Source: an uncultured Verrucomicrobiae bacterium | GTDB lineage: Bacteria; Verrucomicrobiota; Verrucomicrobiia; Limisphaerales; Palsa-1400 | Assembly: GCA_963764165.1 (NCBI GenBank) | Contig: CAVXRD010000004.1 | Location: forward strand, 480,001-544,000 | Direction of reading: 5' to 3' | DNA: 64,000 nt | Shown here: positions 1 to 46,228 of the stretch, piece by piece | Position numbering within the stretch: the first letter of the stretch is position 1 | How the letters are laid out: every line of letters starts with the position of its first letter | Program-made: the position numbers and the translations under genes | Notes under the pieces: generated by a model | Told to the model about the DNA's origin: nothing | The model's input: the letters and a program-made list of their open reading frames with translations, nothing else | Database searches by the model: none

Positions 1-3000
1 ACAGCCAGGTCGCCTTCGCCATCAATCAGGCCTCCGGCGATGTCATCTTTGGCAACGGAGGATTGTTGACCAACATCCTCATTTCGGCGCTGCAATCCAA
101 CAACGCGGCCGCGGGAACGTACTACGCATTGACCAATACCGGCAGCGGCCTGGCTCTCATGCAGATTACCGCCATTGCCGGCGTCAACGGTCAGGCCACC
201 AATACTTACACCACGAACGGTTTCACCAGCGGCGAAACAGCGACCAATCTGACCATCTCGACCGGCGCGACAAAAACCAACGGGACCGCCTCGGCGGGAT
301 TCACGGAGAATATCAACCTTGGCCCGAGCGGGATTTATCAAACGGTCGTTTCCCAGAATGGCGTGGGAAAATGGCACGTCTTGCAGACCGCAACACTTTG
401 GGAAATTCTCGACTCGGCCAACAATGTCGCCTTCCAAATCAACCAGGCATCCGGCGATGTCATTTTTGGCAATGGCGGATTGTTGACAAACATTCTGATC
501 GCCGGAATTTCCAGCAACGGCGTCACGGCCGGAAGCGTTTTCGTCGTCACCAACACAGGCGCGGGCCTCGGCTTCATGCTCGCCCCTGCGGCCAGCGGGA
601 TCAACACGAGCGGCGGCTTTGGCACCAACAATTATTTGACCAACGCCACGACCAGCGGCGAGCACGCCACCAATTTGACCATCGCCAGCGGCAACGCCGG
701 CGGCGCAACGAACCTGAACGCGAATGCCTTCACCGGAGGCACAACCGCACTCACCAATCACAACGCGGCCGTGGCCAATTTCGGAAGCAACGTGGTTACG
801 GCCGCAACGAACGTCAGCGGAGCCATCGCCAATTCCGGAACTTTCTCCACCGACGGCGGAAACATCAGCAGCGACGCTCTTGGCCACCTGTCCATTTCGC
901 CGAATGAAAACAACGGCGTTGGCTTGACTGTTAGCCAGGATCAGGCCGGCGACGACATTGCGGATTTCACCGATTGGAACGGCAATTTGATCTTTCAGCT
1001 CGACGGACCGAATCAGCAAGCGAAACTGGCCGCGCCCTGGATTTACGCTGGCAACGGCAGCGACCTCACGACCCTTAACGCCTCGCAATTAACCAGCGGC
1101 ACGGTGCTTCCCGCGCGTCTCGGCGGCGGATCCCCCAGCTCGAGCACGGTTTTGTACGGCAATTCCACTTGGGGCCCCATCGTCGGCGGCAGCGGGATCG
1201 CGACCAGCGGCGGCGCCGGCACCAACAATTATTTAACGAACGCCACCACGAGTGGAGAGAGCGCAACGAATCTCACCATCGTGAGCGGCAACATTTCAGG
1301 GGCGACCAACCTGCCCGTTTCGGCGCTCAAGACAAACGGCCTGACGGCCGGAAGCGTCTACGTCCTGACCAATTCTGGAAGCGGAATGACCGTGATGGTT
1401 GCTCCGTCTGGAGGCGGCGGAGGAGGCTCGGGAATTCCAACCATCGCAGGCGTCGGCACCAACACGTATTTAACCAATGCGACGAGCAGCGGCGAGATTG
1501 CGACAAACATCAGCATTATCAGCGGTAATATTTCTGGAGCGACAAATCTCCCGCCGTCAGGCCTGAGCAGCGGCAGCGCGTCTGCAGGGCAAGTGCTCGA
1601 ATGGAGCGGCACGGCTTGGGTTCCAACGTCCATCAGCAGCTATCTCAATTTCACAACGGTCGGCGGCGTCAACGATGGCGTCACTCTAAATGATGCAGCG
1701 TTCTCGAACGCGTGCGCAGCCCTCGGCCCGGCAGGCGGCGTGCTCTATATGCCGAAAGGCAGCGGCTACAAATTCAAAGGCGGCATCATCATCACCAATC
1801 AGCAGATCACGATCCAGGGCGACGGCATGGGTGTCTACGGCGGATTGGGCGAGCCGGACGTTTTCAGCAGCGTCATCATCTGGACCAATCTGACGACCAA
1901 TCTCTTCACCTTCACAGGACAGTCAATAACATTTCAAAATCTCTCAGGATTCTGGACAAACACCGCCGCGCCGACCGCTGGCGCGTTCATCGCCGTCACC
2001 ACCAATTGGGACGGCGTCAATGGACAGGTGCAATGCAACTGGCTCAACGTGCTTTTGGATGGTGGATATCGCTGTGTTGATTATCAAGCCGGGCAGAACT
2101 GGCAGGCGACTCAATTGGAATGGGTGCGCTGGTGGATGGACGGCATCCGCATCAACAATTTGGCCAATCCAGACATCGGAGGCTGGACGATCACCGGCAG
2201 CGGTTGGGCTGCCGTGGCTGGCCTGCAATACACTATAGGAGCGCATGTTGCTAACAGCGCCATTTGCTGGAACGGATCAGGCGGCGGCTCGATCATCAAC
2301 ACGGGCGGAGGCGCATTCAATTGGGGCGGGTATAGCGACCCCGGCGGCTACACCAATGCCATCTTGATCCAGCCGGAATATCCATCCGGCGCGGATTCCA
2401 CCAGCACGTTCTTCATTAACAACGCGCTCATCGACAATTATCTTGTGCATGGAATTTACTCCGAGCCAGGCACGGGATCTTTCTCCAACATCAAATTCGT
2501 TCAGGTCCAAATGGAGTCTTTTGTCGGCGGCGCATCGTCAGCAATTTTGCTAACGGGCGGAATTGGAAATAACGGCACCATTGACGGGTTTTCAACAGAA
2601 CAGCCTATTGCCAATCAAATCACCTTGAGCGGAATGGCTGGCATCGGCCTCGGTTTGATTAACAACAGCGGAGTGGAACCTAGCGTCGAATTGCTCAGCG
2701 CATCGACCTGCTACCCATTCTCTGATTTCACCGGCATTTTTGATCCCTTCGCCGGAAATCCACAATTGAAGATCGGATCATGGTTTTTGCAATCGCTTAA
2801 CACGAACGATACCACCCTCGGATTCAACGGCTACTTCACCGGAAGCGGTTTGACCGCGAAGCAAACCGGCGCGGTCGCGACCATCCAGGGACTCAACCAG
2901 GGCGGCATGTTCATGACGCTCTACGGCCAGACAACCGCTGGAGCCGTCGTCGGCAGCCCCACGCAAATATTCGCCGTGCGGCCAGGCGGCATCGGCATCG

Positions 3001-3695
3001 GAACGTTCACGCCCGCGGCGGAACTCACAGTCAACGGGGCGGCCATTGTGAGCAACAGCGTGACCGCAAACGGCGGATTCATTGGGCTCGGCAGCGCCCT
3101 GACCAATTCCGCGGGACACAATTATCAGGACGGAGTCCAGGCAACGAACATGTTTGCCACGCTCGCCGCAACTCAGCCGACGAACCTTACTTTGACACAG
3201 ATCGCCAGTCAGACGTCCACGGCGATCAACGGCGCCGGCATAACGAACATCCCTTTGTCTGGTGCGGTTGCTGGCGGAAACACCATCGCTACAAACGGCC
3301 AGGCAACCGCAACCAATAATATTGGTTTTGTGCTTCGAGCCGAAGCTTTGACCCTCAACACCTCGGCAAATTATTTCGCGCCATCTTACAATTCCACCGG
3401 AGGCACGGAGGTAAACAAGGCGTCGGGGCTGCTCGGCGGAGTCTACGGAGACAACGTGACTGTCAACTTCTCTGCCACCAATTTGCCTGGGACTAACGTC
3501 TACATAATTTGGAGAACCAACCAGATTTCTTGTGCAACCAATGTGATTTCCGGCCCCATCACGCCATTGCAACCGTACACATTTTCAAACCCACTCACCG
3601 TGACAAACGGAACAACGTGGGATTTCATCATCACGAACAGCGTAAGCACGACCGGGTACTACATCACGATGGCAGTGAGCCAGAGGCCGCTATGA
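1..3695 (+). CDS. Phage tail fibre/tailspike-like protein, 5'-truncated by the window; Gly/Thr/Asn-rich repeats followed by a pectate-lyase-3-like beta-helix
   Basis: Frame is open from base 3. Repeated blocks QINQASGDVIFGNGGLLTNI and TNATTSGExATNLTIxSG. Motif GVNDGVTLNDAAFSNACAALGPAGGVLYMPKG is typical of beta-helix N-caps. Lies directly upstream of holin/spanin-like genes. Confidence 0.65.
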   Translation, partial: SQVAFAINQASGDVIFGNGGLLTNILISALQSNNAAAGTYYALTNTGSGLALMQITAIAGVNGQATNTYTTNGFTSGETATNLTISTGATKTNGTASAGFTENINLGPSGIYQTVVSQNGVGKWHVLQTATLWEILDSANNVAFQINQASGDVIFGNGGLLTNILIAGISSNGVTAGSVFVVTNTGAGLGFMLAPAASGINTSGGFGTNNYLTNATTSGEHATNLTIASGNAGGATNLNANAFTGGTTALTNHNAAVANFGSNVVTAATNVSGAIANSGTFSTDGGNISSDALGHLSISPNENNGVGLTVSQDQAGDDIADFTDWNGNLIFQLDGPNQQAKLAAPWIYAGNGSDLTTLNASQLTSGTVLPARLGGGSPSSSTVLYGNSTWGPIVGGSGIATSGGAGTNNYLTNATTSGESATNLTIVSGNISGATNLPVSALKTNGLTAGSVYVLTNSGSGMTVMVAPSGGGGGGSGIPTIAGVGTNTYLTNATSSGEIATNISIISGNISGATNLPPSGLSSGSASAGQVLEWSGTAWVPTSISSYLNFTTVGGVNDGVTLNDAAFSNACAALGPAGGVLYMPKGSGYKFKGGIIITNQQITIQGDGMGVYGGLGEPDVFSSVIIWTNLTTNLFTFTGQSITFQNLSGFWTNTAAPTAGAFIAVTTNWDGVNGQVQCNWLNVLLDGGYRCVDYQAGQNWQATQLEWVRWWMDGIRINNLANPDIGGWTITGSGWAAVAGLQYTIGAHVANSAICWNGSGGGSIINTGGGAFNWGGYSDPGGYTNAILIQPEYPSGADSTSTFFINNALIDNYLVHGIYSEPGTGSFSNIKFVQVQMESFVGGASSAILLTGGIGNNGTIDGFSTEQPIANQITLSGMAGIGLGLINNSGVEPSVELLSASTCYPFSDFTGIFDPFAGNPQLKIGSWFLQSLNTNDTTLGFNGYFTGSGLTAKQTGAVATIQGLNQGGMFMTLYGQTTAGAVVGSPTQIFAVRPGGIGIGTFTPAAELTVNGAAIVSNSVTANGGFIGLGSALTNSAGHNYQDGVQATNMFATLAATQPTNLTLTQIASQTSTAINGAGITNIPLSGAVAGGNTIATNGQATATNNIGFVLRAEALTLNTSANYFAPSYNSTGGTEVNKASGLLGGVYGDNVTVNFSATNLPGTNVYIIWRTNQISCATNVISGPITPLQPYTFSNPLTVTNGTTWDFIITNSVSTTGYYITMAVSQRPL

Positions 3696-3745
3696 CCTTC
3701 ATGACATGCCGTAAGTTCGCGCTGGGGTCGGATGGCGAATGATCG

Positions 3746-4021
3746 ATGGACACGACTCGAAATAATTTTGACGGCACTGGCGATACTGACCGCGCTTCTG
3801 ATCGTTCGTGGAAGCGGGCCGAAGTCATTTTTGCCGCCCTCGGCATGGCCATCGCGCTATTTGCCGGCGTCGGCTCGTGGTTTGTCCTTCCGTATCGAGT
3901 CACCGCCGCCGAACAAAAAATTGAAAAATTCGGGTCTGAGAAATCCGCTGATCACGACGTTCTGATCAAAATGGAAGAAGACTTGCGTCAAATACAAAAA
4001 ACCCTCGAAAGACAAAAATAA
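3746..4021 (+). CDS. Small single-TM plus coiled-coil protein, holin-like
   Basis: 91 aa; one hydrophobic helix (VIFAALGMAIALFAGVGSWFVL) and a charged coiled-coil tail; position after the tail gene. Confidence 0.5.
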   Translation: MDTTRNNFDGTGDTDRASDRSWKRAEVIFAALGMAIALFAGVGSWFVLPYRVTAAEQKIEKFGSEKSADHDVLIKMEEDLRQIQKTLERQK

Positions 4022-4115
4022 TTACGATTTTGGCGGGGTGTGGTGCGTGGGGAAATCCCATGACAGGGTTGAATTTTCCCCTCATGAATCACCCGCCGAA
4101 AATCTGAAAGTTAAT

Positions 4116-4832
4116 ATGAACGATACAACTCAAATTTTGCTGCAAACGCTCCTCAAATTTATCGCGGGCTCCCTTGTTACCAAGGGAATCCTCAGCGCGC
4201 ACGACGCCTCCGCCGCATCCGAACTCGCCTACACAATCGTCGGCGCCGTGATCGGCCTCTTCGCCCTCGCCTGGCACAAAGCCCACGCAGACAAATTGCT
4301 GGCCACGCCTCCGCCTGGGAGCGCCCCGTCCGCGCCAGCATCCGGCACACTGCTCCCATTAATCGCATTCCTCCCATTCCTCGCATTGCCCGCCTTCACC
4401 GGCTGCGCGCTCCTGGACAAGCCATTGCCCGGCCAGACAACTCCGGCGCCGCTCGTAGCCTTCACCAACGGCACTGCGTATTTGCTCGGCCACGCTGCCA
4501 CCAGCAATGAGGTCTACACCGCCGCCCACGACGCCGCCAAGGTCGGCACAGCCGGCTTGCTGCTCGAATTCCCGACCGCGACAAATTACATTTCAGACGC
4601 CCAAGTCGTTTTTGAAAGCTTCGCGACCGGCGGAACATTCTCGCTGCCTGAGTTGACCAACGCCATCGCGCAGATCGGCATCAAGAACGCCGGAGACGAA
4701 ACCGTCGTCTCCCTGCTGGGCAGTTCCGCGCTGAGCCTCGCGGGCCTCTACGTCGCCCCGCTCATCAGCGAAGACACCAACGCCGCCCCCTACATCCACG
4801 CCGCGCTGCACGGCATCGCCGACGGCCTCTAA
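4116..4832 (+). CDS. Holin-like two-TM N-terminus fused to a lipoprotein-like C-terminal part
   Basis: ATG at 4116; two hydrophobic helices, Pro/Ala linker, then a second signal-like segment ending in lipobox-like FTGC. Confidence 0.5.
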   Translation: MNDTTQILLQTLLKFIAGSLVTKGILSAHDASAASELAYTIVGAVIGLFALAWHKAHADKLLATPPPGSAPSAPASGTLLPLIAFLPFLALPAFTGCALLDKPLPGQTTPAPLVAFTNGTAYLLGHAATSNEVYTAAHDAAKVGTAGLLLEFPTATNYISDAQVVFESFATGGTFSLPELTNAIAQIGIKNAGDETVVSLLGSSALSLAGLYVAPLISEDTNAAPYIHAALHGIADGL

Positions 4833-4862
4833 ACCGGTAGCCGTGAACTATAGATTACAGCC

Positions 4863-5058
4863 ATGAATTTCATCGGCCCGAATATTCAGCGCGATTGCCA
4901 GCGCCTTCAACTGGATGACTGGCCGCGACCAGATCAAAAACAGCCCTGCGATGCAAGCCGCCGCCGCCGCCAAAAGCGAACAAGCGCAGGTCGACAAGGC
5001 CACCAAGGCCATCGCCACCCAGGACACCGAAGAAATCAGGAAGGAGCTAGCCGAGTGA
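4863..5058 (+). pseudogene. i-spanin (Rz)-like small protein with a +1 frameshift at 4881-4882 (real or sequencing error)
   Basis: Removing one A after CCG gives MNFIGPIFSAIASAFNWMTGRDQIKNSPAMQAAAAAKSEQAQVDKATKAIATQDTEEIRKELAE*, an N-terminal anchor plus coiled coil. Its TGA overlaps the next GTG. Confidence 0.5.
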
Positions 5059-5432
5059 AACAATCCGCATCAATTCAGTGCAAATTCGCATTCCTCCCAT
5101 TCCTCGCATGCCTCCTATTCTGCCATGCCTGCACAACGGTCGTTCCGGAAAAGACCGAAGCGAAAGCCCCCAGCTTTGACGGCGGGGCTCAAAACAGCGG
5201 CTTCGAAGGTTGGACCACGAACACCCAGACCGGCGCCGTGTATGCCACATTGACCAGCCACGCCCGCGACCGCTACAACGCGCTTATACAAGCCTACGGC
5301 AAGCGTTTCGCGCCGCCGTTGGTCAAAGACGCCGGACTCATCCCAACAGCCACAGGCTGGCAAATCGACTTGCAGCATCTGGCTAATTTCGCGACCATGA
5401 ACCGCTGGAAAAAAGAAGCCGTCAAACCCTGA
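5055..5432 (+). CDS. Lipoprotein, o-spanin (Rz1)-like
   Basis: GTG start in a GTGA overlap; signal MKQSASIQCKFAFLPFLACLLFCHAC with a lipobox-like Cys; last gene of the cassette. Confidence 0.5.
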   Translation: MKQSASIQCKFAFLPFLACLLFCHACTTVVPEKTEAKAPSFDGGAQNSGFEGWTTNTQTGAVYATLTSHARDRYNALIQAYGKRFAPPLVKDAGLIPTATGWQIDLQHLANFATMNRWKKEAVKP

Positions 5433-6320: not shown

Positions 6321-9300
6321 ATGACATCACAATTGCAAACCCAATCCAAACCCTCGATTTTCAAGCGGCTCGGCGCCTTGGCGGCGATCGGCCTTCTGGC
6401 TGTGGGCGCTTATTCCATTTACGTCGCGACTCACGAACCTGATTCGCAGGAAACGGTTCTGCTGGGCCAAACGCGCGTTGCGGCCGGCAGTCCGGCTGGA
6501 TTCCGGATCGTGGTGCGCAATCGAATCACGGGCCAGACCGTGCGCGGGGCCAATGTTGAAATAGCGCTCGCGTCCAAGAATTCGCAAAGGACGAGGCTCG
6601 GCAATGTTCACACCGACGCGAGTGGCACGTTTGATGGATCGCTCAATATTCCTGAGGTGGCGCCCGGGAATTATCAGCTTCTCGTCGATGTGACGTCCTC
6701 GTTAGGGCGCGATCACCTGGTGAAGAATATCGAGGTGGAAAATCCCGCCCGCGTCTTCTTGTCCAGTGACAAGCCGCTTTACCAACCCGGACAGACGATC
6801 CATTTGCGAACGATGCTGGTCAACCCGCGAACGGAAAAACCCCTTACGAACGAAACGATGACCTTTGAAATCAGCGATCCCAATGGAAACAAGGTCTTTA
6901 AGGAGACGCGTCTCCCCTCCACTTTCGGAATCGCCGCGGCGGATTTCGTCCTCGCTTCGGAGCTGAATCCCGGTCGGTACCAAATTCGCGCCGCCGCCGG
7001 CCCTGCCACGGCGGAGCGAGCTGTTGAAGTCAAACATTACGTTTTGCCGAAATTCAAAATCCGGGTTTCAACCGACAAACCGTACTACCTGCCAGGCCAG
7101 ATTGTGACTGGGACAGTGGAAGGGAATTACTTCTTCGGCAAACCGGTTGCGGAGGCGGACGTCAATTTAACGGCCGCCACGGTGGAGGACAAACCGGTGG
7201 CCATCGCCGGGTTGAAGGGAACGACTGATTCCAATGGCAAATACGCTTTTCGTTTTGTTCTGCCTGATTTTTTCGCGGGGCTGCCAGAAAAGAACGCGCA
7301 GGCCTTCCTGGACCTGACCGCGACGCTGACGGACACGGCGCGGCATTCTGAGAAATCAACCCTATCGCTCACCGTCGCGCAAAGTGAATTGGAGATCGCG
7401 GCCATTCCCGAGGCGGGGACATTTGTGCCTGGGGTTGAAAACGTTCTTTACGTGCTCACGTCTTACCCGGATGGCCGTCCGGCGGCATGCAAGGTTTTGC
7501 TGAATGGAACTGCCTACGCGACGGATGCAGCGGGTGTCTGCGAAATCAAACTGACGCCTTCCGACACAACGCCGCCGGTTGAACTTACCGCGCTCGATTC
7601 GGTTGGACGGAAAGCGAAGCTGGTGTTTCATCCGGACAAGACCCTCCCTGCAGCGCCGCTGTTGGTGCGTGCGGACAAAGCGGTTTACCAAGCCGGCCAA
7701 GCTGCCAAAATCACTGTTCTCTCGTCCGAAGGCGATAACACTGTGTTCATCGACGCGATCAAAGACGGCCAGACGGTCTTCACCAAGTCGGCGTCTCTAA
7801 AGAACCATGCGGCGGAATGCGCAATCGATCTTCCCGCGTCGCTGGTTGGCCCTCTTCAGATCAACGCCTACGTTATTGCAGCCAATGGCGAAGACAGAGG
7901 CAGTTCGCGCGTGTTGTTTATCAATCCCGCATCCGGGCTAAACATTTCGGCGAAATTGTCGAAGCCAATCTATCGGCCAGGCGAGTTGGCGACGGTTGAT
8001 CTGAGCGTCACAGACTCCCGTGGCCAGCCGGCGCCTGCTGCGTTAGGAATTGCGGCGGTCGACGAGAGCGTCTTCGCCCTGCACGAAAATCGGCCCGGCC
8101 TCTTGCAGCAGTTTCTCGACGCAGAAAGCGACTTGTTGAAGCCGCGCTATCAAATAAAATTCTTTGACACGCCGGACCAGATTCTTCTCGGCACGCAACA
8201 AAGGCTGGCGTCGGCGTATCTCGCTTCATTGGAGCAGCGATCCGCTCCGTCAGGAATCGAGGCCATGATTCACAGCGGCGATCCTTCGGCCCAATCTCTC
8301 GTGGATCAACTCCGCCGATTCAAGGGAACGAAGGAATATGAGTCTCTCCGCAATGACCCGCAGTTCGCCGAAGCGTTTCGTTTCGCCGAGGGCGGCGGAG
8401 GTCTTTACACGATGCGTGAAGCGACGGGTCCGGTGAAGCTTCAAGCAACGGAGGCGCACCGGCGGGCTTATTTCAACGCACTGGGCAAATATGGGCGAAA
8501 TGCCTTCCTTGCGGCGGTGTTCCTTGCTCCTCTAATCCTGCTGATTTGCCTGTCGCGACGCAAATCGGCTGTCATTTCCGCGAACGCAAGCCCGGGCGCA
8601 TTGCGTGGAGCAGAAATAAGCGTTCGTGTTTATAACAAGCTCGGCGCAGCGACCATTTTTCCATTGATATGGTATCCGGGTGGGCTGGCGCTGTTCGCTG
8701 GGCGAAACGATCACGCAGCGTGGTTTCTCTTCGGAGTGGAGGTGGTTGCAATTCTTCTACTTCTTTGCGTCGGATTTTTTGAAACAAGACCCACAGCGGT
8801 GAAGGATCTGGGGCGGGACACCACAAGCGCTCGCATCGGTCTCATTGCCTTTTTCACACAATTCGCATTTTCCCGCGCAAGTTTCGCCATGATCGCACTA
8901 AATCCGCCATCTTCGGAAGACATGCTCATCATGCTGCTGCTCGGGAGCGTTCTCGCGCCCCTGACCGTTTTGGCCTCCTACGGGATTCTTTTAAAGAACC
9001 AAATGGACAGTCAAAACATCACAACCCGGACTCCGCAAGTGTCCTTCGCGTTTTGGGCCTCAGTCATCGTCATGATCCTCGTCTTGTCATCCATGCTCCT
9101 GCCCTCGCTGGCGCGGGCCAAACAAAAAGCGCAACGCATTTCATTGATTAACACATTGAGGCAAATCGAGACCGAAAAGCAGATCATGGATTCCGATAAT
9201 GCGGGCCCGGAAAATGCCGCCCAAAGTTCGCCCCGCATCCGGCGTGATTTTCCCGAAACGCTTTTCTGGCGGCCGGAGTTGATCACCGACGACCACGGGA

Positions 9301-11321
9301 AGGCGAGTCTGGAAATTCCACTGGCCGATTCCATCACAACCTGGCGCACGGCGATTGATGGAATCAGTTCCACGGGAAAGATGGGCGGCGCGGAATTGCC
9401 AATTCCCGTCTTCCAGGATTTCTTTATTGATCTCGACCTGCCCGTCTCCATGTCGCTGGGTGACGAGGTCTCAGTCCCTATTAGCTGCTACAACTATTTG
9501 AACGAAGCGCAGGACGTTCATTTGACTCTAGCGTCCGCTGACTGGTTTGAATCACCACTGCGAACCGCTGCGATCCATCTCGCGCCCAACGAAGTAAAAA
9601 GCGCGACTCTGCCAATCAAGGTTGTCCGCGTGGGCAACCGCTCCCTCCGCATTTCAGCTCAGGGAACCAAAATGTCGGACGCCGTTGAACGCGAAATCCG
9701 AGTGCTCCCGGTAGGTGAGAAAACCGAGCGGACACAAAATGAGATTCTGCAAAGCGACTTCACCGATACGATGACTATTCCGGAAGGCTCCGTGCCGGAT
9801 TCGCAGAAATTGATCGCAAAGTTTTATCCATCGCGCTTTAGCGAGATTGTCGAAGGACTGGATTCGATTTTCGAAGCGCCTCATGGATGTTTTGAGCAGA
9901 CCTCTTCCACCACCTATCCAAACGTCCTCGTGCTTGATTACCTCAAGCGCATGGGCCGCTTGACGCCGGAGATCGAGATTCGAGCGCGCAAGTTCATTAA
10001 CACCGGTTACCAGAGGCTCTTGACCTTCGAGGTTCCAGGCGGCGGTTTTGAATGGTTCGGCCATACGCCTGCCAATGTGGGACTGACGGCCTACGGCATT
10101 TTGGAGTTTACGGATATGAACCACATTCAGCCCGTTGATCAAGCAATGGTAAGTCGAACTCTGGAATGGCTGCGGGCGCAGCAGAGCGCTGACGGCTCGT
10201 GGAAGCAGGCCGACGGCTACGACGATTGGTCGCAACGCAAGCCGCTCACCGCCTATGTGGCATGGTCTTTGGCTGAAGCGGGCGACCATTCGCCGACTCT
10301 CCAGAAGGCGCTGGATTACTTGCGAACTCACCCCGATGAAATTTCAACAACCTATGCCAAAGCCCTCGCCGCAAATGCGTTGCTCGGCAACAACCGAAGC
10401 GACGCCTTCGGTCGCCAATTGGCGACTCAGTTGCACGACACCGCTTTCAACGACTGCAAACAAATGGTTCATTGGAAATCCACCGGGCAAAGTCTTACGC
10501 ATTCAATTGGAATGGGAATGGAGACGGAGACAACCGCCCTGGCGGCAATGGCGTTGATGAAAGCAGGCATGTGGCCGCAAACTGTCAAACAGGCGTTAAA
10601 TTGGATCTCGAAGGCCAAAGACGCAAATGGCACATTTGGATCGACCCAAGCCACGATTCTCGCCATCCGCGCCCTTTTGACGGGAAGCACCACCTCGCTT
10701 GGACAAGATTTTGAATCCGTGATCTCAGTCAAGGTCAACGGACAATCCGTCGAAACATTCCACGTTACCAAGGATAATAGCGACGTGATGAAACAGGTTG
10801 ATTTAACAAAATTCCTTCGCCTCGGCGAAAATAAAATCAGCTTTCATCAAGAGCCGGCTGGCGAACTGCCGTTCCAATTTGCCGGCTCATATTGGAAGCC
10901 GTCTGTTCCGACTATATCGGCCGCGAAGACGAACGCCGATCCCCTGCAAATTGACGTCCAATACGATCGCACCGCCCTCTCCATCAACGACCAGCTCAAA
11001 TGCTCAGTCACAGTCAAGAATAACACGAGCCAGCGCATCAACATGGCTATCGTCGATTTGGGCATCCCACCGGGGTTCGAAGTGGACGAAACTTCGTTCG
11101 AGCGAATGCGCGAAAAGGATCAAATCGCCAAGTTTGAATTGACTGGAGCACAGGTCATTCTCTATTTGCGCGACCTTTCCGAATCGTCTCCATTCAAGTT
11201 CGATTACAGTTTGAGGGCCAAATACCCGTTGCGCGTCCAGACACCACCGAGCGCCGTCTATGAATACTATCAGCCCAAGAACCGCGCTGAGGCGAAGAGG
11301 GTCACATTGGAAGCCCTGTAA
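6321..11321 (+). CDS. Alpha-2-macroglobulin family protein with N-terminal anchor, intact thioester and a multi-TM/pilin-like insert in the bait region
   Basis: GGAGG RBS; MG motifs SDKPLYQPGQ, YVLPKF, AVDESVF; RRDFPETLFW; DSITTW; thioester GCFEQ (CFEQ at 9888-9899); C-terminal YEYYQP. Confidence 0.92.
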   Translation: MTSQLQTQSKPSIFKRLGALAAIGLLAVGAYSIYVATHEPDSQETVLLGQTRVAAGSPAGFRIVVRNRITGQTVRGANVEIALASKNSQRTRLGNVHTDASGTFDGSLNIPEVAPGNYQLLVDVTSSLGRDHLVKNIEVENPARVFLSSDKPLYQPGQTIHLRTMLVNPRTEKPLTNETMTFEISDPNGNKVFKETRLPSTFGIAAADFVLASELNPGRYQIRAAAGPATAERAVEVKHYVLPKFKIRVSTDKPYYLPGQIVTGTVEGNYFFGKPVAEADVNLTAATVEDKPVAIAGLKGTTDSNGKYAFRFVLPDFFAGLPEKNAQAFLDLTATLTDTARHSEKSTLSLTVAQSELEIAAIPEAGTFVPGVENVLYVLTSYPDGRPAACKVLLNGTAYATDAAGVCEIKLTPSDTTPPVELTALDSVGRKAKLVFHPDKTLPAAPLLVRADKAVYQAGQAAKITVLSSEGDNTVFIDAIKDGQTVFTKSASLKNHAAECAIDLPASLVGPLQINAYVIAANGEDRGSSRVLFINPASGLNISAKLSKPIYRPGELATVDLSVTDSRGQPAPAALGIAAVDESVFALHENRPGLLQQFLDAESDLLKPRYQIKFFDTPDQILLGTQQRLASAYLASLEQRSAPSGIEAMIHSGDPSAQSLVDQLRRFKGTKEYESLRNDPQFAEAFRFAEGGGGLYTMREATGPVKLQATEAHRRAYFNALGKYGRNAFLAAVFLAPLILLICLSRRKSAVISANASPGALRGAEISVRVYNKLGAATIFPLIWYPGGLALFAGRNDHAAWFLFGVEVVAILLLLCVGFFETRPTAVKDLGRDTTSARIGLIAFFTQFAFSRASFAMIALNPPSSEDMLIMLLLGSVLAPLTVLASYGILLKNQMDSQNITTRTPQVSFAFWASVIVMILVLSSMLLPSLARAKQKAQRISLINTLRQIETEKQIMDSDNAGPENAAQSSPRIRRDFPETLFWRPELITDDHGKASLEIPLADSITTWRTAIDGISSTGKMGGAELPIPVFQDFFIDLDLPVSMSLGDEVSVPISCYNYLNEAQDVHLTLASADWFESPLRTAAIHLAPNEVKSATLPIKVVRVGNRSLRISAQGTKMSDAVEREIRVLPVGEKTERTQNEILQSDFTDTMTIPEGSVPDSQKLIAKFYPSRFSEIVEGLDSIFEAPHGCFEQTSSTTYPNVLVLDYLKRMGRLTPEIEIRARKFINTGYQRLLTFEVPGGGFEWFGHTPANVGLTAYGILEFTDMNHIQPVDQAMVSRTLEWLRAQQSADGSWKQADGYDDWSQRKPLTAYVAWSLAEAGDHSPTLQKALDYLRTHPDEISTTYAKALAANALLGNNRSDAFGRQLATQLHDTAFNDCKQMVHWKSTGQSLTHSIGMGMETETTALAAMALMKAGMWPQTVKQALNWISKAKDANGTFGSTQATILAIRALLTGSTTSLGQDFESVISVKVNGQSVETFHVTKDNSDVMKQVDLTKFLRLGENKISFHQEPAGELPFQFAGSYWKPSVPTISAAKTNADPLQIDVQYDRTALSINDQLKCSVTVKNNTSQRINMAIVDLGIPPGFEVDETSFERMREKDQIAKFELTGAQVILYLRDLSESSPFKFDYSLRAKYPLRVQTPPSAVYEYYQPKNRAEAKRVTLEAL

Positions 11322-45211: not shown

Positions 45212-45379
45212 TTCCGCGCAAGCCGTTTCGACGCTCCAGCAAATTAATCGGCGAGTCTCTCCCTACCGAAAATCAAGTTCCCGTGGGACGGCATACCACA
45301 AACTGCGTATATGATTCAATTGCGGGGAGTGTATAATTACAGGCGTGGGCAGCAAAACCAATTCGGTTCTAACGGCAGC

Positions 45380-46228
45380 ATGAGAATTGTATCCAAGAGG
45401 TTAGTCAACGCCAGAAAAACCAGGGGCCAAAGGGAAGCACGCGAGAGGCGAGGTTTCACTTTGATCGAACTGCTGGTCGTCATTGCCATCATCGCCATAC
45501 TTGCCTCCCTGCTCTTGCCGGCCTTGGCCACTGCCAAGCGCAAAGCGCAAGACATTCAGTGCCTCAATAATGGCAAGCAGATCGTCCTCTCCATGAAGAT
45601 GTACGTCAACGACTCGGCGGACATGATGATCAGCTACAATGACCCGAGCGGGGCTTACACTCTGTGGGTCGGCCGGCTGCAATCCAACTACAGCCAGCTT
45701 GCGCAATCCCGCCTCTGCCCCGCCACACGCGATCCAAATCCGTGGGTCGAGCAGCAACCCGCCTCCACCAGCGATGGCAACGGCGGCTTGGGAGTGGCCG
45801 ATTACACTTGGAACTGGGGGGTCTACAGCGCGTCGGCCTATCATGGGAGCTATGGCATCAACGCCTGGTGCTATTCGGGGCTCGACGGCAGTTCGAGCTA
45901 CTTTGACAAGGAAGCAAACGTGACCAAACCGGCGACAACGCCCTATTTTTCCGACTCCATCTGGATCGACGGCGGGCCTCTCGAAGCGGATACTCCCGCT
46001 CGGAATTTGTATACCGGCGCCGACGATGAAGACATGGAACGCATCACCATCGCAAGGCACGGCATCAATCCCGGTCGCGCCCCAAGAAACGTCCCGGCGG
46101 GAACATTCTTAGTGGGCATGATTAACCTTGGTTTCGTCGACGGGCATGTCGAAGCGAAGCGCCTGGAAGATTTGTGGAGCCTCACCTGGCGCAAGGGCTG
46201 GGTGCAGCCGAACCCGCGCCCAAAGTAG
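45380..46228 (+). CDS. Prepilin-type N-terminal cleavage/methylation protein with H-X-DG C-terminal motif
   Basis: [30 protein letters not shown]...NLGFVDGHV. Confidence 0.92.

Follow-up and report, generated by a model that had tools for sequence, protein, structure and literature searches.

A thioester alpha-2-macroglobulin of animal type with six predicted membrane helices in its bait slot from an uncultured Verrucomicrobiae bacterium

Results

Identification of the alpha-2-macroglobulin gene

We analysed a 64,000-nucleotide stretch of DNA (the window; positions 480,001 to 544,000 of contig CAVXRD010000004.1, assembly GCA_963764165.1) from an uncultured Verrucomicrobiae bacterium and examined one gene in it, which encodes a 1666-aa thioester protein of the alpha-2-macroglobulin (A2M)/thioester-containing protein (TEP) type. 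The slot in which proteins of this family carry the bait for proteases is occupied here by an insert with six predicted membrane helices, and the last of these resembles the N-terminal helix of type IV prepilins. The gene and the parts that it shares with other A2Ms were located as follows.

6321..11321, + strand: whole gene, stop codon included; 1666-aa thioester alpha-2-macroglobulin/TEP-type protein
6369..6431, + strand: N-terminal hydrophobic helix, aa 17-37 (hydropathy peak 1.95); predicted uncleaved signal-anchor
6750..8081, + strand: macroglobulin domains MG2 and MG3 and bait-region domain, aa 144-587 (Pfam); the beta-chain-like half
9231..9263, + strand: nearly invariant PR(I/V)RRDFPETL, aa 971-981 (entropy 0.22 bits), where the A2M fold resumes
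9258..11291, + strand: A2M domain, thioester domain and receptor-binding domain (Pfam); the alpha-chain-like half

All Pfam matches lay above the curated cut-offs: MG2 at aa 144-236 (E = 2.7e-27), MG3 at aa 239-309 (5.3e-7), A2M_BRD at aa 449-587 (2e-11), A2M at aa 980-1070 (1.2e-20), TED_complement at aa 1175-1452 (1.4e-42), and A2M_recep at aa 1573-1657 (1.6e-15). The domain order (MG, bait-region, A2M, TED, receptor-binding) is that of the A2M/TEP family, and no known Pfam domain was found between the end of A2M_BRD at aa 587 and the start of the A2M domain at aa 980. The thioester motif GCFEQ, a CxEQ sequence, was located at aa 1189-1193 (nt 9885-9899), as expected from a preliminary description of this DNA, in which the CFEQ thioester had been read as intact. 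When the protein was compared with solved structures, the best matches were mosquito TEP1 (E = 1.7e-55), CD109, human A2M, and A2ML1 (down to 3.5e-50); complement C3 scored approximately 1e-33 and Escherichia coli YfhM just 1.2e-8. Because TEP1, CD109, and A2M scored far above YfhM, the protein was assigned to the animal type of thioester protein and not to the ECAM type. By these matches, the gene is an intact thioester A2M of the animal TEP/CD109/A2M type. Around the N-terminal helix, basic residues precede and acidic residues follow the hydrophobic stretch, and the motif YS-I-Y-V-A..HEPD is kept in homologues. A lipobox Cys is absent from the N-terminus, and the helix of aa 17-37 contains no Cys.

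Structure of the bait-slot insert

Alignments to the solved A2M, C3, and TEP chains restart at query residues 963-974, which correspond to residue 729 of human A2M and residue 757 of C3. Since the alignments restart there, aa 588-973 (386 residues) fill the bait slot exactly. The bait slot of A2M is the site that holds the anaphylatoxin domain in C3. In the window protein, the slot contains in order a soluble helical part, six hydrophobic helices (transmembrane segments TM1 to TM6), and a disordered linker.

8082..8498, + strand: soluble, mostly helical first part of the insert, aa 588-726 (alignment A1; short helices of low pLDDT, the predicted local distance difference test score)
8499..8561, + strand: TM1, aa 727-747, predicted to cross from the periplasmic to the cytoplasmic side (hydropathy 2.39; AlphaFold2 helix at model residues 120-166, aa 699-745)
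8646..8996, + strand: TM2-TM5, aa 776-892, predicted four-helix membrane bundle (hydropathy; AlphaFold2 pLDDT 70-93)
8997..9044, + strand: loop 5, aa 893-908, predicted cytoplasmic; basic (mean K+R 2.9 in 26 sequences)
9045..9176, + strand: TM6 and stalk, aa 909-952, helix derived from a prepilin class-III signal and pilin alpha-1 (homology, AlphaFold2)
9177..9230, + strand: variable acidic Gly/Pro/Ser-rich linker, aa 953-970, predicted bait (AlphaFold2 disorder, entropy)

The soluble part opens with a conserved LLKPRYQIK and includes a variable loop at approximately aa 638-652; its entropy is 1.26 bits overall and 2.17 bits in this loop. A 19-residue Kyte-Doolittle scan gave six hydrophobic peaks at nt 8499-9110, four of them strong (2.2-2.7) and two weaker (1.44-1.47). 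All six fall inside the interval 8480-9230, to which the preliminary description had assigned six hydrophobic helices between the two halves of an A2M. An AlphaFold2 model of the insert, proposed there as a check, was built on a 26-sequence alignment (A1) and gave six long helices at the places of the hydropathy peaks, with a mean pLDDT of 66 and values mostly of 70-93 in the membrane part. The last helix was one continuous helix of 51 residues (model residues 330-380, aa 909-959), and the tail that follows it (aa 960-981) was disordered, with pLDDT below 40 from model residue 381. The positional entropy was 0.22 bits in PR(I/V)RRDFPETL, approximately 1.0 bit in the A2M body, and 2.2-2.4 bits in the cytoplasmic loops, which are the most variable parts of the protein.

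Subsequently, relatives of the insert were sought. Searches of the insert and its five-helix part with Pfam and NCBIfam gave nothing at E <= 0.1, a Foldseek search of the insert model against the PDB gave no match at E <= 1e-3, and the ESM Atlas gave no usable match to the insert. A wide search with VIA-align returned only generic four-helix bundles over model residues 173-322, and the best of them (Z 11.3, to a designed protein) is uninformative, as such a score is for helical bundles. When a profile of the five helices was run against 1.84 billion representative proteins, 22 matches were obtained, and all but one were members of the A2M family or apparent fragments. The full-length matches were A2M proteins. 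Among the short matches, the majority appear to be fragments, and P0066 is a form with an internal deletion. Within TM2-TM5, the residues Y-P in TM2, Glu 807 in TM3, and Ser-Arg 851-852 in TM4 are invariant (alignment A1 columns Y206, E228, S272, and R273).

P0066 (350 aa) combines the N-terminal anchor and helix domain of the family with the pilin-like helix and the final approximately 35 residues of the A2M protein, and it has no macroglobulin or thioester domain; it may be either the remnant of an internal deletion or a real small membrane protein. P0067 (283 aa, E = 1.2e-11) was the sole standalone relative of the five-helix module among the 1.84 billion representatives. The motifs Y-P, Glu, and Q-F-x-F-T-R are retained in P0067, and Pfam gave no match to it; the protein could be the source of the module or an offshoot of it.

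Conservation of the insert within the family

A search with the insert only retrieved 53 database proteins. In forty-eight of them, the match extends over 95% or more of the insert (33-56% identity), and the full-insert proteins are nearly all 1650-1700 aa long and carry the full list of A2M domains. The other five cover just 35-41% of the insert and comprise short forms of 1521-1538 aa and one fragment. In the short forms, one of which is named Pedosphaera parvula, the insert is 229-238 aa long and contains only TM1 and the pilin-like last helix, while all A2M domains and the thioester are kept. TM1 is retained by the long and the short (two-helix) forms alike. The collection of homologues, which the preliminary description had named as a check on the insert, thus showed a conserved element, whole in 48 of the 53 proteins and in a two-helix version in five. 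Among 39 parsable long inserts, 37 had six hydrophobic peaks at the same offsets and two had five. A scan of metagenomes added 22 further parsable long inserts of 383-398 aa, with six peaks in 21, and one short insert. GCFEQ was seen in every parsed metagenome or family locus that reaches the thioester site.

These data bear on an artefactual origin of the gene, that is, a chimeric assembly or a fused gene call that joins an A2M to the DNA of a membrane protein. The same continuous open reading frame (ORF) with the insert recurs in independent assemblies (48 full-insert proteins, 22 metagenome loci, and the genomes of four other species), and no break in composition was seen over the insert. 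We consider an artefact extremely improbable.

To place the short forms, a tree of 42 full-length proteins was used, from which the insert was removed and four proteins were left out. Three short forms represent three independent changes on this tree, all forced by well-supported branches, and a fourth (in genome G024) belongs to the same genus as a long form (G010). The natural forms carry two or six insert helices. By this tree, TM2-TM5 disappeared on three or more separate occasions, each time all four together, and the helix count stays even.

The same losses bear on the possibility that the bundle is a sensor of the membrane state, which would respond to membrane damage, depolarisation, or an intramembrane cut and spring the trap without a soluble protease. 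The invariant polar and charged residues within TM2-TM4 (Y-P, Glu 807, and Ser-Arg 851-852) would fit such a role, as would the fact that the bundle has no relatives outside the family except the one 283-aa protein. However, the repeated loss of TM2-TM5 left the A2M domains and the thioester of the short forms complete, no part of the protein varies more than its cytoplasmic loops (2.2-2.4 bits), and distant relatives hold unrelated sets of helices in the same slot. Hence, we regard a membrane-state sensor as quite improbable, and the intramembrane trigger that the preliminary description had envisaged finds little room, since its four-helix core is dispensable.

Three side observations were made on family loci. 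The short-form gene of G024 (L038 / L111, ORFs 14-2716 + 2617-4572) is split into overlapping frames of 900 and 651 aa; either it is a frameshifted pseudogene or the split is a sequencing error. In L059:13196-18697, a second ORF of 1834 aa, which clusters with A2M genes, lies approximately 900 bp downstream of the family gene. L110 and L112 are contigs with a verrucomicrobial-type gene inside metagenome-assembled genomes titled Saccharimonadales and Acidiferrales, and were probably mis-binned.

Membrane topology

In the 26 sequences, loops 1, 3, and 5 contain on average 2.5, 2.0, and 2.9 K+R, against means of 0.1 and 0.0 for loops 2 and 4, the two short loops that are predicted to be periplasmic. 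Because the loop charges alternate and the N-terminus is basic ahead of the first helix, the N-terminus is predicted to be cytoplasmic and both A2M halves to be outside, with TM1-TM5 weaving through the membrane and TM6 crossing from inside to outside. The predicted direction of TM6 is the native direction of a prepilin helix. In total, the protein contains one N-terminal and six internal hydrophobic helices. The earlier argument that an even number of insert helices would keep both A2M halves on one side of the membrane is consistent with the loop charges and with the short forms, which lack exactly four helices.

The pilin-like sixth helix

Residues 914-969 of the window protein matched a canonical prepilin-like ORF of its own genome (L002) with an E value of 6.6e-10 and 57% identity. 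This ORF carries G/FTLIE (the slash marks the cleavage site), and its post-proline stretch (LLP-S-L-ARAKQKAQRIS) is nearly identical to that of the window helix. The same residues matched ORFs, mostly of 200-400 aa, in all 40 relatives searched. These matches indicate that helix 6 is homologous to the N-termini of prepilins. The preliminary description had drawn the likeness from a prepilin near position 45380 of the window. The pilin homology itself is solid; the pair named there is weak, as ORF 45311-46228 matched the helix with a BLASTP E value of 0.013 and 9/27 identical residues, only after the hydrophobic stretch. If its first ATG is the start, this ORF has 47 residues ahead of G/FTLIE, and either its leader is unusually long or the start is mis-placed.

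The pilin-type features present in the window copy are the 51-residue helix of the AlphaFold2 model, the proline, and the basic continuation, and loop 5 sits where the leader peptide of a prepilin would. The helix is internal, beginning at aa 909 behind five helices, and it lies approximately 20 aa before the A2M fold, with no pilin head. For the comparison of the cleavage site, all 53 family proteins were anchored at the helix proline; for short forms, the register may be a few residues out. Position -1 is Gly in 7 of the 53 proteins and Arg in 27, so that Gly is absent from 46; position +5 is Glu or Asp in 39, Gly in six, and another residue in eight. In the window copy, these positions are Q (-1) and F (+5), the latter followed by W (+6), in line with the earlier remark that it lacks the G/F...E5 site; across this copy and its nearest relatives, -1 is Q, R, or K and +5 is F, L, or T. 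No pilin model (TIGR02532 or PF07963) matched the window insert at E <= 1. A further suggestion had been to look for homologues that retain GFTLIE, and these do exist: P0035 carries G/FTLIE and passes TIGR02532 at aa 924-946 (27.2 bits against a cut-off of 16.3), and P0044 carries G/MTFIE. Gly at position -1 (Gly-1) is the one residue that prepilin peptidase strictly needs. One prepilin peptidase was found in the genome, and because Gly-1 and Glu at +5 (Glu+5) are lost, the window copy is predicted to stay uncut by it.

A second set of A2Ms, whose named members are Planctomycetota, carries a two-helix insert, the second helix of which matches the first 41-49 positions of DUF1559. Thus two flavours of the helix exist, LLPAL-A-K-AK in the verrucomicrobial family and the DUF1559 type in the second set. 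Two DUF1559-type members have Pro at -1 and otherwise keep FTLIE or FTFVE; one member of the set, P0138, which has Pro before FTLIE, passes the Pfam N_methyl model PF07963 (23.3 against 21.2). We also looked for forms split into two genes that have a genuine prepilin signal at the N-terminus. A search for shorter proteins gave many of 700-930 aa; no clean case was found among the 31 N-termini inspected, which start inside the insert or linker and look like cut or mis-started calls.

Helix 6 could still be a working pilin-type element, cut by the peptidase and/or docked via Glu+5, so that the pilus or type II secretion system (T2SS) machinery would position or deliver the thioester warhead. Several findings point in this direction: the canonical or near-canonical sites of P0035 and P0044, the Glu or Asp at +5 in 39 of the 53 proteins, the leader-like basic loop 5, the prepilin peptidase encoded in the genome, and the two helix flavours, which suggest continued contact with the pilin machinery or gene conversion. 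On the other side, Gly-1 is replaced in 46 of the 53 proteins (by Arg in 27) and by Pro in the two DUF1559-type members, and the window copy has neither Gly-1 nor Glu+5. Judging from C3 structures, we take the insert to interrupt a single MG domain. In that case, the C-terminal chain would remain bound to an N-terminal chain that up to six helices keep in place, and this speaks against its being pulled out into a filament. In addition, no pilus or T2SS genes adjoin the gene in the window or in clustered related loci. Taken together, coupling to a pilus is doubtful for the family, and for the window copy we judge it unlikely; the docking on the pilus or T2SS suggested in the preliminary description was not borne out for this copy, which lacks Gly-1, Glu+5, and adjacent pilus genes.

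The seven Gly-1 relatives deserve separate mention. Cutting by prepilin peptidase, on the cytoplasmic side of the membrane, would yield a two-chain, C3-like molecule, and the warhead chain, led by the pilin helix, might stay in contact with the pilus/T2SS machinery. Such contact is suggested because Glu+5 is kept and the helix matches pilin-like proteins of its own lineage; we hold this as a tentative idea that is rather unlikely to be correct. If true, the Gly-1 forms would be a thioester trap coupled to the pilus system, a bacterial counterpart of the processing of C3 by furin.

Proposed function of the window protein

We propose that the window protein is a membrane-tethered periplasmic protease trap with six helices in its bait slot and the linker after the stalk as its bait, and assign this reading a probability of approximately 0.5. 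The protein would be anchored twice in the cytoplasmic membrane, by its N-terminal helix and by the insert, with both macroglobulin halves in the periplasm. Rather than a pilus subunit, helix 6 would be a start-transfer helix for re-export, would remain uncut in the window copy, and with its 22-residue continuation would form a rigid stalk that holds the bait above the membrane. The bait itself would be the disordered, variable linker of approximately 20 residues between this stalk and PR(I/V)RRDFPETL. A protease that reaches the periplasm would cut the linker; the half with the thioester, released by this cut, would then rearrange and attach covalently to the protease. The whole complex would be retained at the membrane together with the N-terminal fragment.

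The linker at aa 953-970 is the most likely bait because it is disordered and variable, stands just before the post-bait residues, and persists in distant relatives. Its entropy is 2.17 bits against approximately 1.0 in the A2M body, and it directly precedes the residues aligned to human A2M 729 and C3 757. Distant helix-bearing relatives have a linker of 40-90 aa at the same place. Furthermore, a relative on a contig named Polyangiaceae (L120) has no helices there and carries a soluble stretch that ends Gly/Pro-rich before the same PRVRRDFPETL.

Several points weigh against a membrane-tethered trap with this bait. The linker of the window copy is short (18 aa) and acidic, with few typical protease sites, and the variable loop at aa 638-652 before TM1, with the same entropy of 2.17 bits, is an alternative bait. 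After a cut in the linker, the C-terminal fragment would have no anchor of its own and would be held only by contacts with the N-terminal half. A mere anchor explains neither the Glu or Asp kept at +5 in 39 of the 53 proteins nor the invariant membrane charges Glu 807 and Arg 852. In addition, the AlphaFold2 model is only moderate, with a predicted template modelling score (pTM) of 0.49.

Comparison with known systems

The best matches of the window protein, metazoan TEP1, CD109, A2ML1, and A2M (PDB 2pn5, 8s3o, 7q1y, and 6tav), share its domain order and the CxEQ in the TED. Metazoan TEP, CD109, and A2M proteins are secreted or anchored by glycosylphosphatidylinositol. Whereas metazoan TEPs and A2M have a soluble unstructured bait, the window protein has a 386-aa slot with six predicted membrane helices in addition to its N-terminal helix. 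Complement C3, C4, and C5 likewise carry an extra module between the halves, and C3 residue 757 aligns with query residue 967. The module of C3 is a soluble four-helix anaphylatoxin, whereas that of the window protein is predicted to be a membrane domain; and where C3 is processed by furin, Gly-1 members of the present family could be cut into two chains by prepilin peptidase.

The insert shares the hydrophobic alpha-1 helix, the proline, and the K/R-rich continuation with type IV pilins, with T2SS pseudopilins, and with the prepilin-like proteins that abound in Verrucomicrobia and Planctomycetes (TIGR02532, PF07963, and DUF1559, PF07596). In pilins, however, the helix is N-terminal and followed by a head domain, whereas in the window protein it is internal (aa 909) and headless, and Gly-1 is mostly replaced in the family.

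Among bacterial A2Ms, the type I proteins (ECAM/YfhM and Salmonella Sa-A2M) are described, in the available portions of the sources, as inner-membrane thioester proteins that face the periplasm and are proposed to trap entering proteases (PMC5764988, PMC4498604). Like ECAM, the window protein is a bacterial thioester protein that is predicted to be held at the inner membrane and to face the periplasm. ECAM has an N-terminal lipid anchor and is encoded with pbpC, whereas the window protein has no lipobox, and no pbpC was found in its locus or genome. Its anchor would comprise seven helices, of which the bait slot holds six, and its similarity to the ECAM-type YfhM is weak (E = 1.2e-8). The type II A2M of Pseudomonas aeruginosa, MagD, is held at the inner membrane via transmembrane segments of its partner MagB, according to the available text of PMC5764988. 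MagD has no thioester and takes its anchor from a separate protein of the operon; in the window A2M, the predicted anchor is in the same chain and the thioester is present. Two bacterial types of A2M are described in that portion of PMC5764988, neither with a membrane-helix insert in the bait region. In a report on archaeal A2M homologues, the main text (figures and supplements aside) does not contain the word 'bait', and none of its six mentions of 'transmembrane' concerns the A2M homologues (PMC8416519). A literature search over titles and abstract openings found no membrane helices or prepilin element in an A2M bait region, which agrees with the earlier statement that no description of this architecture was known.

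The A2M family is triggered by a cut in one exposed loop, and here the region of that loop appears to be built into the membrane, with a recycled pilin export signal as its last helix. If our reading as a membrane-tethered trap is right, this would be a new way to anchor a trap and the caught protease to the cell envelope, and the Gly-1 forms would offer a bacterial parallel to two-chain complement processing. The insert-free, two-helix, six-helix, cleavable, and non-cleavable forms provide a natural series for probing the membrane part. A short form in a cultured organism (the match named Pedosphaera parvula) would make ordinary genetics and biochemistry possible. Furthermore, the protein is closer to animal TEP/CD109/A2M proteins than to the studied bacterial A2Ms, and it thus bears on the origin of this immune protein family.

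Distribution and gene neighbourhood

When the soluble part and TM1-TM5 of the insert were used as the query, the gene was found once in a phylum-wide sample of 401 genomes, in its own genome, and five times in an order-wide sample of 401. Among the 40 closest relatives, orthologues were found in three: G010 and G024 with the whole-insert query, and also G008 with the C-terminal-half query. Searches of four genomes from the same genus yielded no orthologue. The phage records gave one weak partial match, to the MG domains only; therefore, the gene is not a usual phage gene.

Downstream of the A2M gene lie genes for Tex, an ABC-F protein, and a two-component pair, and upstream lie ORFs of a prophage end. 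Three small ORFs were found upstream at 3746-5432 of the window, the middle one of which (4038-4832) weakly matched the holin family PF23987 (24.3 bits against a cut-off of 27); they are probably prophage lysis genes. The A2M gene starts approximately 900 bp past the last of them. In the comparison with genomes of the same genus, only Tex was kept (83% identity) and the other neighbours differed, so that no boundary of an island could be drawn. The earlier observation that pbpC is not a neighbour could be extended: none was present at the locus, and PF06832 had no match in the genome, which is 97% complete.

C3 and insect TEP1 tag foreign surfaces through their thioesters. By analogy, the activated thioester of the window protein might mark a foreign envelope surface or molecule, for example a component of a predator or phage. 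Consistent with this, the closest solved relatives are TEP1 and CD109 and not bacterial ECAM, no pbpC partner is encoded, and the distribution is patchy like that of accessory defence genes (five of 401 genomes of the order, and none found in four of the same genus). Against it, the whole protein matches no PADLOC defence model, and the protein would be restricted to the periplasmic face of the inner membrane. The sequence does not separate tagging from trapping. We consider tagging distinctly unlikely.

A divergently oriented gene for a protein of approximately 160 aa with HTH_17 and zinc-ribbon parts was seen just upstream of the A2M gene in all four of the other genome loci with upstream DNA (L034:13019-13525, L035:8062-8568, L036:2890-3360, and L037:1-409; 72-78% identical to one another). 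In PADLOC, the model mad1 was also matched by its HTH part (2.6e-10). The corresponding cluster contains an ORF in 23 of 41 related loci, many of which end a short distance upstream. The gene was considered as an obligate partner and rejected: the window gene has no such neighbour, and its genome carries the partner candidate on another contig (G000:C1:1114261-1114698).

Distant relatives

What distant A2Ms have in common with the window protein is limited to the flanking motifs (LLKPRYQIK and PR-L/V-R-x-FPETL), and their slots hold two to seven hydrophobic segments that are unrelated in sequence. Such helix-bearing A2Ms were found on contigs named Planctomycetia, Gemmataceae, Lentisphaerae/Victivallales, and Anaerolineae. 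In some of them, the codon of the thioester Cys is an in-frame TGA (G-TGA-FEQ) and the frame is open beyond it. The sites are L093:3807-3809, L096:10477-10479, L098:10696-10698 (= L099), L100:4567-4569 (with the near-identical L101), and L104:6197-6199. TGA forms were also seen in L114 and L115, which have read-through ORFs of approximately 1600 aa; in the metagenome loci, more than 400 aa are open. A selenocysteine insertion sequence (SECIS) was sought after the TGA: a hairpin was found in each case, none of them folded better than shuffled sequences, and the consensus fold was weak. The genes selA and selB were present above the curated cut-offs in the genomes of L114 and L115, and neither was found in the genome of the window. 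The in-frame TGA points to selenocysteine at the thioester site of these distant relatives.

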